From a virus (Duplodnaviria; Heunggongvirae; Uroviricota; Caudoviricetes): a stretch of 7,207 bases of DNA. Under the pieces are notes generated by a model. The model made no database searches, had not been told where the DNA came from, and saw only the letters and a list, made by a program, of their open reading frames with translations. The position numbers and the translations under genes were made by a program. This document shows positions 1-7,207 of the stretch, piece after piece (position 1 is the stretch's first letter; each line of letters begins with the position of its first letter). The stretch is taken from the IMG/VR virus record IMGVR_UViG_2703718769_000012. The stretch is one strand, 5' to 3'.

Positions 1-177
1 ATGATCTGGCAGCCTGAGTTCACAGATAAAACACTCTCCAGGAAAATCGGGGCGGTTCAAAATCTTAATCAGGAAAAGTATGCTAACCATTGTGGTGAAG
101 TGCAGGTTTGCTGCATGAATAGTTTTACAGCAGAAGCTAACTGCTGGCATGGCAAAACAAAGTGCGTAAGTGGATGA
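1..177 (+). CDS. Short Cys/His-rich ORF (58 codons from window position 1, TGA at 175-177), possibly the 3' end of a gene truncated by the window edge
   Basis: Open frame from base 1: MIWQPEFTDK...HCGEVQVCC...CWHGKTKCVSG. It lies just upstream of the lysis cassette, where lambdoid phages carry the late regulator Q, but I do not recognise the sequence as Q. The ATG at position 1 may be coincidental. Confidence 0.35.
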   Translation: MIWQPEFTDKTLSRKIGAVQNLNQEKYANHCGEVQVCCMNSFTAEANCWHGKTKCVSG

Positions 178-202
178 CTCCCACAAAAAGCACCACAATC
201 TC

Positions 203-226
203 AAACCCGCTCAGGCGGGTTTTTTA
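203..226 (+). terminator. Rho-independent terminator
   Basis: Hairpin CCCGC-tcag-GCGGG (206-219) followed by a run of six T (220-225), 26 nt after the upstream ORF stop. Could be the end of the upstream gene or a tR'-like late terminator. Confidence 0.7.
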
Positions 227-284
227 TTATCTGCTTTAAATATATTATTAAAATATAAAAAATACTTGTTACTAATAAAATCAA

Positions 285-455
285 TCAGGCTACAGCTTTA
301 AGATTTGTCTGGAATACTTTGTTGCAATGAGGGCAGATCAAAAGGGCACCTTTTTGTACTCTTGAAAAACTGTGTTCTGACTCTTGGGTGCAGTTTGGGC
401 AGGAACATTTAACGAGATAATTACGGCGTGATTTTGAGTTTTTACGTTCTGACAT
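285..455 (-). CDS. Small zinc-ribbon protein, 56 aa from the internal Met (the ORF track extends it to 506)
   Basis: Minus-strand ORF with a CxCxxC ... CxxC motif (KCSCPNCTQESEHSFSRVQKGALLICPHCNKVF). The internal ATG at 453-455 is preceded by AGGAAA with about 7 nt spacing; the ATG at 504-506 has no Shine-Dalgarno. A TTGAAA -35-like hexamer lies upstream on the minus strand. No homology search was done. Confidence 0.45.
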   Translation of the reverse strand: MSERKNSKSRRNYLVKCSCPNCTQESEHSFSRVQKGALLICPHCNKVFQTNLKAVA

Positions 456-674
456 AGGCTTTTCCTGTATAAATGGCCGTATACAGTACACTAAATATGA
501 AAACATTTCTCGTATTATTATTTTATATATGACTTTCTTTCAAAATAATTACCCACATTTTTAATGTGTATGTTTTTTTAGCGCCGTTGAGAACAACGTG
601 TGCTGTCAAAACTACCCCGTAGACTCCGATCTTTTCAAACATATTGCACCATCCGTGTACATCGGGGTGAGGAT

Positions 675-890
675 ATGAAATCAATGGATAAGTTAACAAC
701 AGGTGTTGCCTATGGCACATCGGCGGGTAATGCTGGTTTCTGGGCATTGCAGTTACTCGATAAAGTAACTCCGTCACAGTGGGCTGCAATCGGTGTGCTG
801 GGTAGCCTGGTTTTTGGCCTGCTGACGTATCTGACAAATCTTTATTTCAAGATTAAAGAAGACAGGCGTAAGGCTGCGAGAGGAGAGTAA
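675..890 (+). CDS. essQ: Phage-21-type class II holin (pinholin) with dual-start motif
   Basis: 71 aa, MKSMDK... gives two starts (Met1 and Met4, antiholin/holin). TMD1 is Gly/Ala-rich ([22 protein letters not shown]-like), TMD2 is [23 protein letters not shown], with a charged C-terminus [13 protein letters not shown]. Closely matches my memory of S21. The ORF track start at 600 is an upstream extension. Confidence 0.9.
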
Positions 891-894
891 TCCA

Positions 895-1202
895 ATGACT
901 CAAGACTATGAACTGGTTGTGAAAGGAGTCCGTAATTTTGAGAATAAAGTTACGGTAACTGTAGCCTTACAGGACAAAGAACGCTTTGACGGTGAAATTT
1001 TTGACCTGGATGTCGCCATGGACCGTGTTGAAGGAGCTGCGCTGGAGTTTTATGAGGCAGCAGCCAGAAGGAGCGTCCGGCAAGTCTTCCTGGAAGTAGC
1101 AGAAAAATTGTCAGAAAAAGTTGAGTCTTATCTGCAGCATCAGTACTCCTTTAAGATTGAAAATCCTGCCAATAAGCACGAGCGTCCTCATCATAAATAT
1201 CT

Positions 1203-1206
<4 letters not shown>
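895..1206 (+). CDS. ydfR: DUF1327-family prophage protein (YdfR-like), function unknown
   Basis: 103-aa ORF starting 4 nt after the holin stop, with its stop overlapping the endolysin start (ATGA at 1203-1206). Same length and position as ydfR in K-12 Qin (from memory). Confidence 0.75.
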
Positions 1207-2230
<1,024 letters not shown>

Positions 2231-2412
2231 GGTAATATTAAATCGGAACATTTACATCGCGGAATGTAAAATTTAAATAAAAAGGACTCTTCCATGAGCC
2301 AAAATTCCTGAAATCTTAAGGGTAAGATAAAAGGTCTTAATCAGAATGACACGTTTTATTAATAAATAAAGCTATTCTTTCATTGCTGTGTTTTTCTTTA
2401 CAAAAGTAATCC

Positions 2413-2592
2413 TTGCTATGGGTGGTTAATCATGCGTTAATGGTGTTCTGGTTTGTTACAAATTTATCTGAAGCAGTCATTGTTATAATTTTATTATTTG
2501 TACCTCTTGAGATTTCCTTGTTGGTTTTTCTCTCTGATATTTTTTTTCGGACCATTCTGCCCAAGGGCTAATTTCTTCAAAAGGTAATAATT
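2413..2592 (+). promoter_or_regulatory. cspI promoter and long cspA-type 5' leader with cold-box-like element
   Basis: Candidate sigma70 promoter: -35 TTGCTA (2413-2418), 17-bp spacer, TGn-extended -10 GTTAAT (2436-2441), predicted start near 2448 and leader about 145 nt. A second candidate is TGtTATAAT at 2481-2489. The leader start (GGTTTGTTACA...AAGCAGTC) resembles the cspA cold-box region, and AAGGTAATAATT precedes the ATG. Start sites are not determinable from sequence alone. Confidence 0.4.
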
Positions 2593-2805
2593 ATGTCTAA
2601 CAAAATGACTGGTTTAGTGAAATGGTTTAACCCTGAAAAAGGTTTTGGTTTCATCACGCCGAAAGATGGCAGCAAAGATGTGTTTGTCCATTTCTCAGCA
2701 ATTCAGAGCAACGATTTCAAAACATTAACTGAGAATCAGGAAGTTGAATTTGGTATTGAGAACGGACCTAAAGGTCCTGCCGCTGTTCATGTAGTGGCGC
2801 TTTGA
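2593..2805 (+). CDS. cspI: Cold-shock protein, CspA family (CspI)
   Basis: 70 aa, [38 protein letters not shown]...: cold-shock domain with RNP1 (KGFGFI) and RNP2 (VFVHF) motifs. Matches CspI as I recall it. AAGG Shine-Dalgarno 8 nt upstream. Confidence 0.95.
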
Positions 2806-2815
2806 GGTAGACAAT

Positions 2816-3004
2816 ATTACAAACCATATTCACTTTAGATGCCCGTGTTGTCATGGTTCCCAGTATAGAACATCATCTTTTGATGTTTCTGACATGAATC
2901 CTTTCGGGGCAAAATGTATCTTTTGTAAATCAATGATGATTACATTTGATAATATTTCACAATACTTAAATGCCAGCCGTCTGTCGTTGGATTTAAAAAA
3001 GTGA
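2816..3004 (+). CDS. Possible small zinc-ribbon protein with no canonical start codon (AUU start candidate, or frameshifted pseudogene)
   Basis: Frame open from 2795 to TGA 3002-3004, with CxxC-(21)-CxxC (RCPCCHGSQYRTSSFDVSDMNPFGAKCIFCKS). No in-frame ATG/GTG/TTG before the first Cys pair. GAGG (2804-2807, overlapping the cspI stop) sits 8 nt before an in-frame ATT at 2816, giving 62 aa. An ATG at 2839-2841 is out of frame by 1 nt across a CCC run. A terminator follows immediately. Confidence 0.3.
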   Translation: MTNHIHFRCPCCHGSQYRTSSFDVSDMNPFGAKCIFCKSMMITFDNISQYLNASRLSLDLKK

Positions 3005-3010
3005 AAATGA

Positions 3011-3032
3011 AGGCTCCTTCGGGAGCTTTTTT
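3011..3032 (+). terminator. Rho-independent terminator with UUCG tetraloop
   Basis: GGCTCC-ttcg-GGAGC hairpin (3012-3026) followed by TTTTTT (3027-3032), 7 nt after the zinc-ribbon ORF stop. Likely ends the cspI transcript. Confidence 0.75.
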
Positions 3033-3076
3033 GCTTGGTGTCTATTCGATGGATACTCACATACTACGGTAACATC

Positions 3077-3307
3077 ATGAAAAAAATCATAGTTTTTTTT
3101 AACTCTGAACCAGCAGTGGTAGTGCCAGCGATGACTGGAGTTAACACCATCATGCGTGAATATCCAAATGGCGAAAAAACACACCTTACTGTAATGGCCG
3201 CAGGGTTTCCATCTCTGACCGGAGATCATAAAGTCATTTATGTAGCCGCGGATCGACATGTTACTTCAGAAGAAATTCTGGAAGCAGCAATAAGGCTCTT
3301 GAGTTGA
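3077..3307 (+). CDS. ynfN: Small protein of the cold-shock cargo module (YnfN-like); start uncertain
   Basis: 76 codons from ATG 3077 (MKKIIVFFNSEPAVVVPAMTG...). Alternative starts are 3131 and 3152; the 3152 form is 51 aa, the length I recall for K-12 YnfN. Sits between cspI and gnsB as ynfN does in Qin. No strong Shine-Dalgarno for any start. Symbol rests on synteny and length, not recalled sequence. Confidence 0.5.
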   Translation: MKKIIVFFNSEPAVVVPAMTGVNTIMREYPNGEKTHLTVMAAGFPSLTGDHKVIYVAADRHVTSEEILEAAIRLLS

Positions 3308-3407
3308 TTTGATGCTATTGCATTGATAATTCAGGAAAATTCTCTTTGTCTGTTTGTGTAAAATTTAGACTATCGTATGTTGATTATTGCGATGTTTCAT
3401 CTTATCT

Positions 3408-3430
3408 TTTACACGTTTGCACCATATAAT
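3408..3430 (+). promoter_or_regulatory. Candidate promoter for gnsB
   Basis: Consensus -10 TATAAT at 3425-3430, about 48 nt upstream of the gnsB start. The -35 is poor (TTTACA at 3408-3413 is only 11 bp away). Sequence-only prediction. Confidence 0.3.
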
Positions 3431-3478
3431 CGACTTACTGTGTAACTGGAAAGTCATAACAGACTAAAAGAGGAAATG

Positions 3479-3652
3479 ATGAATATTGAAAACTTAAAAA
3501 CAAAAGCAGAAGCAGATATTTCTGAATATATAACAAAAAAAATTATTGAACTTAAGAAAAAGACCGGGAAAGAAGTTACCAGTATTCAGTTTACCGCACG
3601 GGAAAAAATGACGGGTCTTGAAAGCTATGATGTCAAGATTAATTTAATCTGA
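3479..3652 (+). CDS. gnsB: GnsA/GnsB-family small protein
   Basis: 57 aa, MNIENLKTKAEADISEYITKKIIELKKKTGKEVTSIQFTAREKMTGLESYDVKINLI. AAGAGGA Shine-Dalgarno 5-6 nt before the second of two adjacent ATGs. TAREKMTGLESYDVKI matches my memory of GnsA/GnsB. Not in the ORF track (under its length cutoff). Confidence 0.85.
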   Translation: MNIENLKTKAEADISEYITKKIIELKKKTGKEVTSIQFTAREKMTGLESYDVKINLI

Positions 3653-3678
3653 TGTATTCAATAATAAAATTTATCCAT

Positions 3679-3704
3679 AAACCTCGTTTTTACGGGGTTT
3701 TGTT
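3679..3704 (+). terminator. Rho-independent terminator downstream of gnsB
   Basis: Stem CCTCG/CGGGG with 6-nt loop (3682-3697), followed by TTTTGTT. Lies between the convergent genes gnsB and ydfO. Confidence 0.55.
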
Positions 3705-3766
3705 ATATTTGAATGGTTCCGAATATCTAAATCACAATTGTTGATGGTTTTTATTAAACCAATGCA

Positions 3767-3795
3767 GTCCGGCTCAGGAGTGAGAGAAGCCGGAC
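3767..3795 (-). terminator. Perfect 8-bp inverted repeat just downstream of ydfO (possible terminator or structured 3' end)
   Basis: GTCCGGCT (3767-3774) and AGCCGGAC (3788-3795) with a 13-nt loop, 9 nt after the ydfO stop. No clear U-tract on the minus strand, so the terminator role is uncertain. Confidence 0.35.
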
Positions 3796-3803
3796 GTTAT
3801 GGT

Positions 3804-4214
3804 TTAGCGTGGTAAGATCTGTGTAGTTTTCTGGATGCTTTCAGTAAATAGTAATGAATTATCAAAGGTATAGTAATATCTTTTTTGTTCGTGGATATTT
3901 GTAACCCACCGAAAAACTCCTGCTTTAGCAAGGTTTCTTCTGTATTCCTGAAATGTGATCTCTCTGGATTTCAGCTTATTAGAGGTCGTTTCTATAAGAT
4001 GCCTATCCTTTGAAAATTTGACAGACACAATGTTTTTTAGGCCCTTTAATAACACTGTATTATCATTTTTTAATACAATATGAACATTCTCTGTGGCTAA
4101 ATAGTAAATGTAATGTGAGACATTGTGACGTTTTAGCTCAGAATAAAACCATTGATAGTTTAAATCGTTTCGAACTTTATCAAATATTTGTTTAAAAATG
4201 ACTACCTGATCCAT
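3804..4214 (-). CDS. ydfO: DUF1398-family prophage protein (YdfO-like), function unknown
   Basis: 136 aa from the ATG at 4212-4214 ([23 protein letters not shown]...), which has GGAAGG 7 nt upstream. The ORF track start at 4229 adds 5 codons. Matches YdfO of Qin in length and, as I recall, sequence. Confidence 0.8.
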
Positions 4215-4439
4215 AGATAAACCTTCCATGTGATATGAGGGGGCGTAGTCTGCACGATTATCTAAATTGCTTCAATCTGGTCTGACCTGTTTTCTGAGCA
4301 ATTCAGTAATGTCACTCTTTTCTTTGTTTGCTTCAGAAGAAACTCTTTTTTCTGAGCACAGTCTCCGGCGGCAGGCTTCAATGACCCAGGCTGAGAAATT
4401 GATTATTTGACGTGGTTTGATGGCCTCCACGCACGTTGT

Positions 4440-4689
4440 GATATGTAGATGATAATCATTATCACTTTACGGGTCCTTTCCGGTGATCCGACAGGTTACG
4501 GGGCGGCGACCTCGCGGGTTTTCGCTATTTATGAAAATTTTCCGGTTTAAGGTGTTTCCGTTCTTCTTCGTCGTAACTTAATGTTTTTATTTAAAATACC
4601 CCCTGAAAAGAAAGGAAACGACAGGTGCTGAAAGCGGGCTTTTTGGCCTTTGTCGTTTCCTTTCTCTGTTTTTGTCCGTGGAATGAACA
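4440..4689. other. Lambda-type cohesive-end site cos (cosQ, cosN, cosB)
   Basis: Near-identical to my memory of the lambda genome ends. Right-end sequence ...GATGATAATCATTATCACTTTACGGGTCCTTTCCGGTGATCCGACAGGTTACG, then the 12-nt cohesive end GGGCGGCGACCT (4501-4512), then cosB with three CGTTTCC-core elements (about 4554-4561, 4614-4622 inverted, 4652-4660) corresponding to R3/R2/R1. Confidence 0.9.
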
Positions 4690-5235
4690 ATGGAAGTCAA
4701 CAAAAAGCAGCTGGCTGACATTTTCGGTGCGAGTATCCGTACCATTCAGAACTGGCAGGAACAGGGAATGCCCGTTCTGCGAGGCGGTGGCAAGGGTAAT
4801 GAGGTGCTTTATGATTCTGCCGCCGTCATAAAATGGTATGCCGAAAGGGATGCTGAAATTGAGAACGAAAAGCTGCGCCGGGAAGTTGAAGAACTGCGGC
4901 AGGCCAGCGAGACAGATCTCCAGCCAGGGACTATTGAGTACGAACGCCATCGACTTACGCGTGCGCAGGCCGACGCACAGGAGCTGAAAAATGCCAGAGA
5001 CTCCGCTGAAGTGGTGGAAACCGCATTCTGTACTTTCGTGCTGTCGCGGATCGCAGGTGAAATTGCCAGTATTCTCGACGGGATCCCCCTGTCGGTGCAG
5101 CGGCGTTTTCCGGAACTGGAAAACCGACATGTTGATTTCCTGAAACGGGATATCATCAAAGCCATGAACAAAGCAGCCGCGCTGGATGAACTGATAACGG
5201 GGCGCACTTTGACGGTGACCAGAGCGGCACGGTGA
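4690..5235 (+). CDS. nohA: Terminase small subunit, lambda Nu1 homologue with a replaced C-terminus
   Basis: 181 aa, MEVNKKQLADIFGASIRTIQNWQEQGMPVLRGGGKGNEVLYD... matches lambda Nu1 as I recall it through ...KAMNKAAALDELI. The last ~12 residues (TGRTLTVTRAAR) are read out of frame from J-derived DNA. Sits directly downstream of cosB. Confidence 0.9.
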   Translation: MEVNKKQLADIFGASIRTIQNWQEQGMPVLRGGGKGNEVLYDSAAVIKWYAERDAEIENEKLRREVEELRQASETDLQPGTIEYERHRLTRAQADAQELKNARDSAEVVETAFCTFVLSRIAGEIASILDGIPLSVQRRFPELENRHVDFLKRDIIKAMNKAAALDELITGRTLTVTRAAR

Positions 5236-5497
5236 ATGGTGTCACGCCGCCAGCAGTTCAGCACCTGACCGCAGAAGTCACCGCAGACAGCGGGGAATAC
5301 CAGGTGCTGGCGCGCTGGGACACGCCGAAGGTGGTGAAGGGGGTGAGCTTTATGCTTCGCCTGACCGTGGCAGCGGACGACGGCAGTGAGCGGTTGGTCA
5401 GCACGGCCCGGACGACGGAAACCACATATCGCTTCACGCAGCTGGCGCTGGGAAATTACAGGCTGACAGTCCGGGCGGTAAATGCATGGGGACAGCC
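5199..5497 (+). pseudogene. Internal fragment of tail host-specificity gene J (about 100 codons), no 5' or 3' part
   Basis: Frame beginning near 5199 reads ...GAHFDGDQSGT(V)NGVTPPAVQHLTAEVTADSGEYQVLARWDTPKVVKGVSF...[23 protein letters not shown], which I recognise as an internal stretch of lambda gpJ. It is out of frame with Nu1 upstream and stf downstream. The ORF-track start at 5232 is a GTG within this fragment. Confidence 0.7.
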
Positions 5498-5794
5498 GGT
5501 GCACATACCCATTCGATGACATTTGTTTCAGGTGGTTCCAGTGGTGCTCCGGGAAGTGGATCACCTGATTATTCTAAATACAGTGTTAACACTTCTTCTG
5601 CAGGCGCTCATACGCACTCTGTATCGGGTACTGCTGCAAGCGCAGGTGCACACGCACATACTGTCGGTATTGGTGCTCATACGCACTCCGTTGCGATTGG
5701 TTCACATGGACATACCATCACCGTTAACGCTGCTGGTAACGCGGAAAACACCGTCAAAAACATCGCATTTAACTATATTGTGAGGCTTGCGTAA
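5486..5794 (+). pseudogene. 3'-terminal fragment of side tail fibre gene stf (C-terminal ~100 codons)
   Basis: Ends ...[32 protein letters not shown], the lambda Stf C-terminus as I recall it, with GAHTHS/GAHAHT histidine repeats. Stop overlaps the tfa start (TAATG). The ATG at 5486 lies inside J-derived sequence and has no convincing Shine-Dalgarno. Confidence 0.75.
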
Positions 5795-6369
5795 TGGCAT
5801 TCAGAATGAGTGAACAACCACGGACCATAAAAATTTATAATCTGCTGGCCGGAACTAATGAATTTATTGGTGAAGGTGACGCATATATTCCGCCTCATAC
5901 AGGTCTGCCAGCAAACAGTACCGATATTGCACCGCCAGATATTCCGGCAGGCTTCGTGGCTGTTTTCAACAGTGATGAGGCATCGTGGCATCTCGTTGAA
6001 GATCATCGGGGTAAAACGGTTTATGACGTGGCATCAGGGGACGCGTTATTTATTTCTGAACTCGGTCCGTTACCGGAAAATGTTACCTGGTTATCGCCGG
6101 GAGGGGAATATCAGAAGTGGAACGGCACAGCCTGGGTGAAGGATACGGAAGCAGAAAAACTGTTCCGGATCCGGGAGGCGGAAGAAACAAAAAACAGCCT
6201 GATGCAGATAGCCAGTGAGCATATAGCGCCGCTTCAGGATGCTGTGGATCTGGAGATCGCAACGGAGGAAGAAACCTTGTTGCTGGAAGCCTGGAAAAAG
6301 TATCGGGTGTTGCTGAACCGTGTTGATACATCAACTGCACCGGATATTGAATGGCCAGCACTGCCGTAG
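5794..6369 (+). CDS. tfaQ: Tail fibre assembly protein (Tfa)
   Basis: 191 aa, [54 protein letters not shown]..., near-identical to lambda Tfa as I recall it. Coupled to the stf fragment by the TAATG overlap. Confidence 0.9.
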
Positions 6370-6466
6370 GGTAAAACATATAAATTCTATAATTAGATGT
6401 ATCTCTCCATTTACGGCAAGGAAGGGGGCTTGGAAGACGTAAAGCATCTCACACCGAGATTATTTT

Positions 6467-7057
6467 TTATATGTCAGGTGTCTGAAGTTTTGCTTTGGCT
6501 CTTAAAATGGTTTGCCGCGAGGTTTTGAATTCCCGGGCAATGGCACTTATACTTACACCTGACTTAATTCGTTCGAATACCACCTGTTTCTGTTCTTCAT
6601 TTAACACAGGTGGTCGACCAAAACGTTTCCCTGCGCCGCGGGCTCTTACTATCCCGGAATGAGTGCGTTCAAGTAAAAGGTCTCGTTCAAATTCAGCGAC
6701 TGCTGAAATTACGTGCATCATCATTTTTCCTGTTGGACTGGTCAGGTCAATGCCCCCCAATGCTAAGCAATGCACTCTGATACCTGTTTCGGTCAGTTGT
6801 TCCACTGTTTTCCTGATATCCATTGCATTACAACCAAGGCGATCCAGTTTTGTCACAATCAATTGATCACCACATTTCAGGCGAGCAAGCAACCGGTTAA
6901 AACCAGGACGCTCACTGGTTGCTGCTGAGCCGCTAATGTGTTCTTCGATTATTTGCTGAGGTTTGATTTTAAAACCTGCACTTTCGATTTCCCGGCGTTG
7001 ATTTTCGGTGGTCTGATCCAGCGTTGATATCCGACAGTAAGCAAAAATTCGAGACAT
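6467..7057 (-). CDS. pinQ: Site-specific DNA invertase, serine recombinase of the Hin/Gin/Cin/Pin family
   Basis: 196 aa. N-terminal catalytic motif Y-C-R-I-S-T-L-D-Q (catalytic Ser11), resolvase-type catalytic domain, C-terminal HTH ([20 protein letters not shown]). Appears intact. Lies next to tfa, as Pin genes do in e14, Rac and Qin. Confidence 0.93.
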
Positions 7058-7207
7058 AGTGAGACTCTATACGAAATTGGTGTTCATATCATAATGCATC
7101 TCAGAAAATAATTTTGATTATTTTTGTGCATATTTGTATGTACACGTTCGAAAATAAACGAATGCGTATGCAACCCCGTAACGGTGATGCTGCCAACTTA
7201 CTGATTT

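Follow-up and report, generated by a model that had tools for sequence, protein, structure and literature searches.

The segment from 5480 to 5794 very probably holds the joint left by an old deletion inside Qin, a lambdoid cryptic prophage, with the 102-residue open reading frame (ORF) that spans the joint a by-product of the same event. The DNA analysed, referred to here as the window, is 7,207 nucleotides long. Its ORFs and their annotated counterparts identify it as the late region of E. coli Qin in a non-K-12 allele, and positions 58-7182 are 100% identical to many complete genomes. The genes follow the Qin order essQ, ydfR, rrrQ, rzpQ, cspI, gnsB, ydfO, ynfO and nohA, after which come two gene fragments and, beyond these, tfaQ and pinQ (Table 1). 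According to the ORF list, tfaQ is the only tfa gene in the window.

Table 1 Features of the nohA-pinQ interval, in window coordinates
Feature	Position	Strand	Basis or remark
nohA ORF, 181 aa	4690-5235	+	RefSeq: nohA
Scar 1, nohA-J joint, GATAACGGGGC	5193-5203	+	Comparison with native Nu1 and strain 300709
J fragment, Ig-like domain	5193-5496	+	Lambda J residues 600-701
Chimeric ORF, 102 aa	5486-5794	+	ATG and two codons from J DNA (+1 frame), remainder stf tip
Scar 2, 4-nt microhomology CAGC	5493-5496	+	Alignment of J, window and intact stf; limits of 100%-identical parents
stf 3' remnant, last 99 codons and stop of a 1116-aa side tail fibre gene, five HxH motifs	5497-5794	+	
His box, diverged copy (70%)	5498-5517	+	Directly 3' of the joint
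TGA closing the J frame	5517-5519	+	7 codons after the joint
His box, reference copy, GGCGCTCATACGCACTCTGT	5603-5622	+	
His box, further copy	5642-5659	+	
His box, second copy	5672-5691	+	90% identical to 5603-5622
tfaQ, intact tail fibre assembly gene	5794-6369	+	Pfam Caudo_TAP
pinQ, intact serine invertase gene	6467-7057	-	Pfam Resolvase and HTH_7

J and stf sequences at the joint

The upstream fragment derives from J. The frame that begins at 5193 is identical to lambda J residues 600-701 at 100 of 111 positions (90%) and ends in AVNAWGQ, so that the similarity to J proposed in the preliminary description is real. The fragment matches Pfam Ig_J (PF24421; E = 3e-36) and is annotated in RefSeq as an incomplete "phage tail tip protein J-related protein" (5193-5495). 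Of the 1132 residues of lambda J, only 101 are left in the window. The Ig_J domain is retained, but the fragment has neither a start codon of its own, nor the N-terminal tip domains, nor the receptor-binding C-terminal part, and is hence an incomplete gene. It is entered out of frame from nohA. Residues 1-167 of NohA are homologous to lambda Nu1 (Pfam Phage_Nu1, E = 4e-101), the last 14 codons of the nohA ORF consist of out-of-frame J DNA, and the native Nu1 continuation is present in K-12 and in metagenome contigs. Past the joint with stf, the J frame reads PVHIPIR before it stops.

The downstream fragment is the 3' end of stf. Intact E. coli stfR genes are 100% identical to the window from 5493 onward, and the remnant begins at codon 1018 of 1116; the N-terminal tail-attachment domain and the shaft (about 1000 residues) are absent. 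Similarity extends to the last 101 residues of the 1117-residue Stf of phage 2H10, which are 80% identical to the 102-aa ORF and fully identical over its last 66 residues, and to lambda Stf (74% of 80 aligned residues). The remnant matches the C-terminal 77 residues of the T4 gp37 tip structure (PDB 2xgf, E = 4e-25) as well as Pfam PF03335 (phage tail fibre repeat). HxH motifs of T4 gp37 coordinate iron ions (PMC11705849). RefSeq assigns 5588-5794 to an incomplete "tail fiber protein". The window thus shares with Stf and the gp37 tip the HxH C-terminus and a downstream tfa gene, the ATG of which overlaps the stf stop as TAATG, but it lacks the attachment domain, the shaft and most of the solved-tip region, and its ATG is borrowed. 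Among phage records, the closest DNA match to 5496-5600 is the gp37-like fibre gene of AV116, a T4-like Mosigvirus (87% identity), which suggests that T-even and lambdoid phages have exchanged fibre tips.

E. coli prophage J genes are 100% identical to the window through 5496, and thus overlap the match to stfR by the four nucleotides CAGC. The parental sequences have CAGC in common (six of seven positions over CAGCNGG) and are otherwise unrelated. With the joint marked by a slash, the J parent reads GGGGACAGC/AGGGCG and the stf parent GCTTCAGC/CGGTGC; in the three-way alignment, GCTTCAGC/CGGTGCAC of stf stands against GGGGACAGCCGGTGCAC of the window. The preliminary description had placed the end of J at AVNAWGQ, near 5495. 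The terminal Q codon does occupy 5493-5495, but the match runs one base further and into the 4-nt overlap with stf. That stf-type sequence follows at once in another frame, as had been described, agrees with the parental alignment. Since CAG is a codon in J but is spread over TCA GCC in stf, the joint is out of frame, and both remnants are therefore pseudogene fragments.

J and stf are separate and collinear in strain 14EC001, in phage 2H10 and in mEp460. Strain 14EC001 has an intact J-lom-stf-tfa block, in which window position 5499 corresponds to position 926 of the locus (in J) and window position 5493 to position 6001 (in stf). The deletion consequently measures 5081 bp (about 5.08 kb), and the sequences lost are J codons 702-1132 (the 3' third of the gene), lom, and stf codons 1-1017 of 1116.

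We propose that an ancestor with the gene order J-lom-stf-tfa-pin would have lost about 5.08 kb in one illegitimate, microhomology-guided event, the end points of which were J codon 701 and codon 1017 of an stf gene of about 1116 codons. RecA-independent slippage or end joining at the 4-nt microhomology would produce such a joint; CAGC is short, and would not prove the mechanism by itself. As in other microhomology-mediated illegitimate deletions of prophages, a 4-nt string joins unrelated sequences, the intervening DNA is gone and no recombinase site is present. Scar 2 is a typical deletion of this kind and belongs to ordinary decay. That the J and stf pieces are incomplete is already known, as RefSeq flags both of them.

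Alternative origins of the joint and the chimeric ORF

It is next to impossible that a sequencing or assembly error has split what is really a continuous stf or J gene. The flanks of the joint come from genes separated by 5 kb in intact prophages, and the joint recurs unchanged in strains of unrelated origin, 91 of the 5426 complete E. coli genomes covering a 141-nt probe across it. Because 91 independent complete genomes share the joint, a sequence error is excluded, and with it a continuous in-frame stf gene. It is very unlikely that J and stf came from two different prophages, a view to which the positions of the best intact matches lend themselves (stf at the DLP12 locus of 14EC001, J at the ydfI locus of YZLc23-1). 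Such an exchange would also have rearranged the chromosome, but the sequences downstream (tfaQ, pinQ and ydfK) and upstream of the joint are collinear with Qin in all strains examined. No genome examined carries a 100% identical J parent together with a 100% identical stf parent in one intact prophage, and a joint between prophages therefore keeps a small probability; it is less simple than an internal deletion. An stf ORF of full length, 1116 aa, is called in some Qin copies, of a nohA-lom type, the locus sequence ending inside the ORF with its 3' end unread. The live phage 2H10 has a matching right arm, consisting of stf, tfa, an opposite-strand invertase, a ydfK-like gene and an integrase. 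Given this right arm and the Qin copies with the 1116-aa call, an internal deletion in a Qin-like prophage is the simplest origin, and the event probably took place within a single prophage.

Two recombination systems lie close to the joint. The pinQ gene is intact 0.7 kb downstream, and invertases of the PinQ family can use quasi-sites. A deletion by PinQ at secondary sites is nevertheless extremely improbable: no match to the AAACCNNGGTTT core is found near 5493, even with two mismatches, CAGC shows no dyad symmetry, and no inverted repeats surround stf or tfa. Across 5100-7207, there is no AAACCNNGGTTT-like core of Din-family crossover sites, and the only inverted repeat of at least 14 nt is one local pair inside J. 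An invertase gene therefore adjoins the fibre sequence as in the invertible segments of the Din family (Pin/Gin/Cin/Hin), but the pair of inverted crossover sites is absent. Homology-guided unequal exchange between His-box repeats is likewise highly improbable as the source of the joint. The stf breakpoint does lie directly 5' of the diverged His-box copy, and the boxes do recombine, as judged from shortened derivatives of the ORF, an additional repeat unit and the boundaries between stf alleles. However, the J parent has no such repeat, and its sequence is unrelated to that of stf beyond CAGC; the His boxes thus did not make the joint, for which the internal deletion at CAGC is preferred.

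The near-identical repeats noticed in the preliminary description exist, at positions slightly different from those proposed. The reference and second copies are identical at 18 of 20 positions, share a 14-nt exact core (GCTCATACGCACTC), and are spaced by 69 rather than 72 nt. By estimate, about 2e-4 exact repeats of 14 nt would be expected by chance within some 300 nt; the repeat is explained by the five HxH protein motifs (Pfam PF03335). Their proposed role as recombination substrates applies to later changes and not to the joint itself. Two shortened, in-frame versions of the 102-aa ORF occur in E. coli assemblies, both with its first 10 residues. The 96-aa version lacks TAASAG, deleted between GGT repeats, and the 84-aa version lacks 18 residues, deleted between two CATAC strings. 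One additional 27-nt repeat unit is present in lambda and in AV116. Similarity to the window begins at 5603 in K-12 stfQ and at about 5645 in lambda stf, both of which are starts of His-box copies. The His boxes are therefore recombinogenic; they gave rise to later in-frame deletions and mark mosaic boundaries between stf alleles. Exchange at a "His box" of T-even gp37 was reportedly described by Tetart et al. in 1998. A search of the available literature for His-box recombination in tail fibres and for stfQ/nohA deletions returned nothing usable.

The 102-aa ORF exists as described, and its incidental ATG arises from a shift of frame within GC-ATG-G of J. The 17 bases before it, which include the SD-like element GGGCGG, pair with the 3' end of 16S rRNA at -7.1 kcal/mol (-5.6 kcal/mol for tfaQ), a value within the top 4% of the 145 plus-strand ATGs of the window. 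Consensus scans revealed no more promoter or terminator sites beside the ORF than expected by chance, and a transcript would have to arise by read-through of the late operon. The ORFs of this interval overlap in series. The J-frame ORF starts at a GTG that shares GTGA with the nohA stop (5230-5238), and has 34 nt in common with the 102-aa ORF (5486-5519), and the 102-aa ORF shares TAATG with tfaQ (5792-5796). Ribosomes could pass along this chain from nohA to tfaQ, and translation of the 102-aa ORF is possible, as far as can be judged from the sequence.

There is only a slim chance that the ORF is a retained and expressed fibre-tip gene that acts together with TfaQ, e.g., in receptor binding or in interference with phage fibres. 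The 52 genomes with the window-type allele keep the ORF intact; strains with this allele include ML35, FORC 064 and NCTC9038. The ORF has the favourable SD-like element and the overlap with the intact tfaQ, and is called a protein in some NCBI annotations and by some pipelines. On the other hand, no nearby promoter-like site rises above chance, the ORF tolerates in-frame losses of 6 and 18 residues, the remnants kept in K-12 and other lineages are quite different, and the copies are essentially identical, so that there has been too little time for selection to show. Most of the solved gp37-tip region is also missing; the ORF retains only its C-terminal part, and the parts for attachment to the virion are gone. 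The chain in the T4 gp37 structure turns back after reaching the tip, as part of an intertwined trimer. As only part of such a structure is retained, a native fold or function would seem unlikely, and the 102-aa ORF, regarded as a by-product of the deletion, is most likely without function.

Age of the scars and other Qin alleles

The nohA-J joint is the younger of the two scars. Scar 1 agrees with native Nu1 (GATACCGGGGT) at nine of 11 positions and with the corresponding site of strain 300709 (GATAAAGGGGC) at 10 of 11. A probe for this joint is covered in 52 of the 5426 complete genomes, and a 571-nt probe spanning both scars gives a single-piece match in the same 52 genomes. Strains 300709 and F829 carry the identical J-stf joint together with longer J fragments and nohA-side joints unlike that of the window. 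In 300709, remnants of A, W, B, C, G and T lie between nohA and a J fragment of 1938 bp; in F829, the J fragment starts near codon 407. Because these strains share the J-stf joint but differ in the longer material upstream, the J-stf scar is older than the nohA-J scar. The preliminary description had counted it as the second scar; it is a genuine scar, but it came before the other one. By the same comparison, it predates at least three nohA-side deletions, including that of the window.

K-12 MG1655 Qin has no J fragment (window 5203-5602 compared with locus 4886-6368). Its nohA runs 21 nt further (to LLSEY), and after GAATATA/ gives way directly to the final 320 codons of a different stf allele, a remnant annotated as the 320-aa StfQ. 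K-12 shares with the window the locus and the order of the genes; there is near-identity in tfaQ, pinQ and the flanks, and stf is 97.5% identical from 5603. The K-12 and window alleles are independent decay products, neither of which can be derived from the other by deletion. A third, likewise independent arrangement is found in strain LR-58-1, where the J piece begins near codon 576 and ends near codon 777 and the stf remnant is longer. A far more complete lambdoid prophage, with stf fused to ydfI, occupies the Qin side of ydfI in YZLc23-1; this prophage and phage 2H10 suggest that the site has been repeatedly occupied and that its occupants have decayed. In the Qin variant of GCA_053257695.1 (locus 3492-5360), a foreign cassette lies between the nohA GATA joint and J, which resumes from about codon 593. 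The cassette comprises a truncated integrase, an AlpA-like gene, a TIR-domain protein that is defence-like (Pfam CAP12-PCTIR_TIR) and a small opposite-strand gene.

The window has another small deletion and two divergent ends. At 4397-4400, 200 bp comprising the 5' end of ynfO and the region upstream are missing, all of which are present in the four Qin copies compared directly. This joint sits in the 4-nt string AATT, and the matches listed for a probe of it in complete genomes are all joined two-piece matches. Positions 1-57 are unlike those of any Qin copy; with a 130-nt probe (window 1-130), a single genome can give as many as 49 matches, and the matches listed span positions 58-130 only. 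In all complete E. coli genomes searched, neither 1-57 nor 7183-7207 is contiguous with the remainder of the window. The last 25 bases (7183-7207, GGTGATGCTGCCAACTTACTGATTT) presumably resemble the terminal inverted repeat of IS1. Mobile-element insertions that were not seen in the complete genomes searched may bound the window on both sides.

The nohA breakpoint and decay of Qin

The breakpoint in nohA lies directly after GAACTGATA (CTGATA/), between window positions 5196 and 5197; in the native sequence, GCTGGATGAACTGATA (5181-5196) continues as CCGGGGTTGCTGAG. We identified 13 non-native continuations, 11 of which begin directly after GATA and two after two or three further native bases. 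Five of these alleles are from complete genomes (four from Qin of different strains, one from DLP12 of BL21), two from draft assemblies and six from metagenome contigs. To the right of the joint they enter A, W, J (at four places), lom (at two places), the stf tip or a foreign integrase gene. A search with the NohA protein added more than 20 further fusion ORFs that diverge right after AALDELI, with tails from B, E, FI, U, V, I, J, lom, stf, tfa and int. Metagenome contigs are a less biased sample. Of the 120 with the anchor, 112 are native and eight (seven alleles) diverge 0-3 nt after GATA; seven genuine joints were counted in the following 1500 nt, and the enrichment per base at GATA is about 375-fold. 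In addition, each of the nine mappable partners has TA as its last two bases before the joint (GATA, TTA, GTA, GATA, CTA, GTA, GTA, ATA and GTA), for which the chance expectation is 1 in 16 each.

By these counts, the nohA breakpoint is a strong, nucleotide-precise deletion hot spot. Compared with shuffled sequence, the native lambda Nu1/A region shows no gain in folding (z = 0.13), and thus gives no sign of an unusual hairpin, and no Chi-like or Type I restriction site was found by eye to fit. Insertion sequences were considered and rejected; in the two copies examined, the IS elements of Qin in RM10410 and NCTC9038 sit elsewhere. Whether decay is non-random, in that lambdoid prophages lose their structural genes through a sequence-directed break or strand exchange at a 2-nt TA core, is doubtful, and we regard it as a tentative possibility.

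The stf tip (5600-5700) also recurs in fusions. The starts of many unrelated phage genes are fused to it in frame at a few recurring points, i.e., /THSVSG, /TAASAG, /SAGAHAH, /TVGIGAH and /IGAHTHS, where the DNA reads CATA/C or GGTA/. Fusion partners include Nu1, A, D, Z, U, T, L, J, holin and lysozymes, as well as ClpP, RusA, HTH regulators and IS3 orfB. As a right-hand target, the stf tip with its His-box codons CAT-AC and GGT-A seems to recur often; as the sample is biased toward short ORFs, this is a lead only.

The J-stf scar by itself has little weight, since it records one step in the erosion of Qin. Its order relative to the nohA-J scar (91 and 52 of the 5426 genomes, respectively) makes it a dated marker that could be used to type Qin alleles. 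Caution is warranted with the K-12 reference structure (nohA-stfQ), which is one of several independent decay products. A hot spot at the 3' end of the small terminase gene would bear on how prophages are disarmed by bacteria while selected genes are kept and, if directed decay by a dedicated enzyme or at a defined fragile site were true, it would constitute a new mechanism of prophage domestication.
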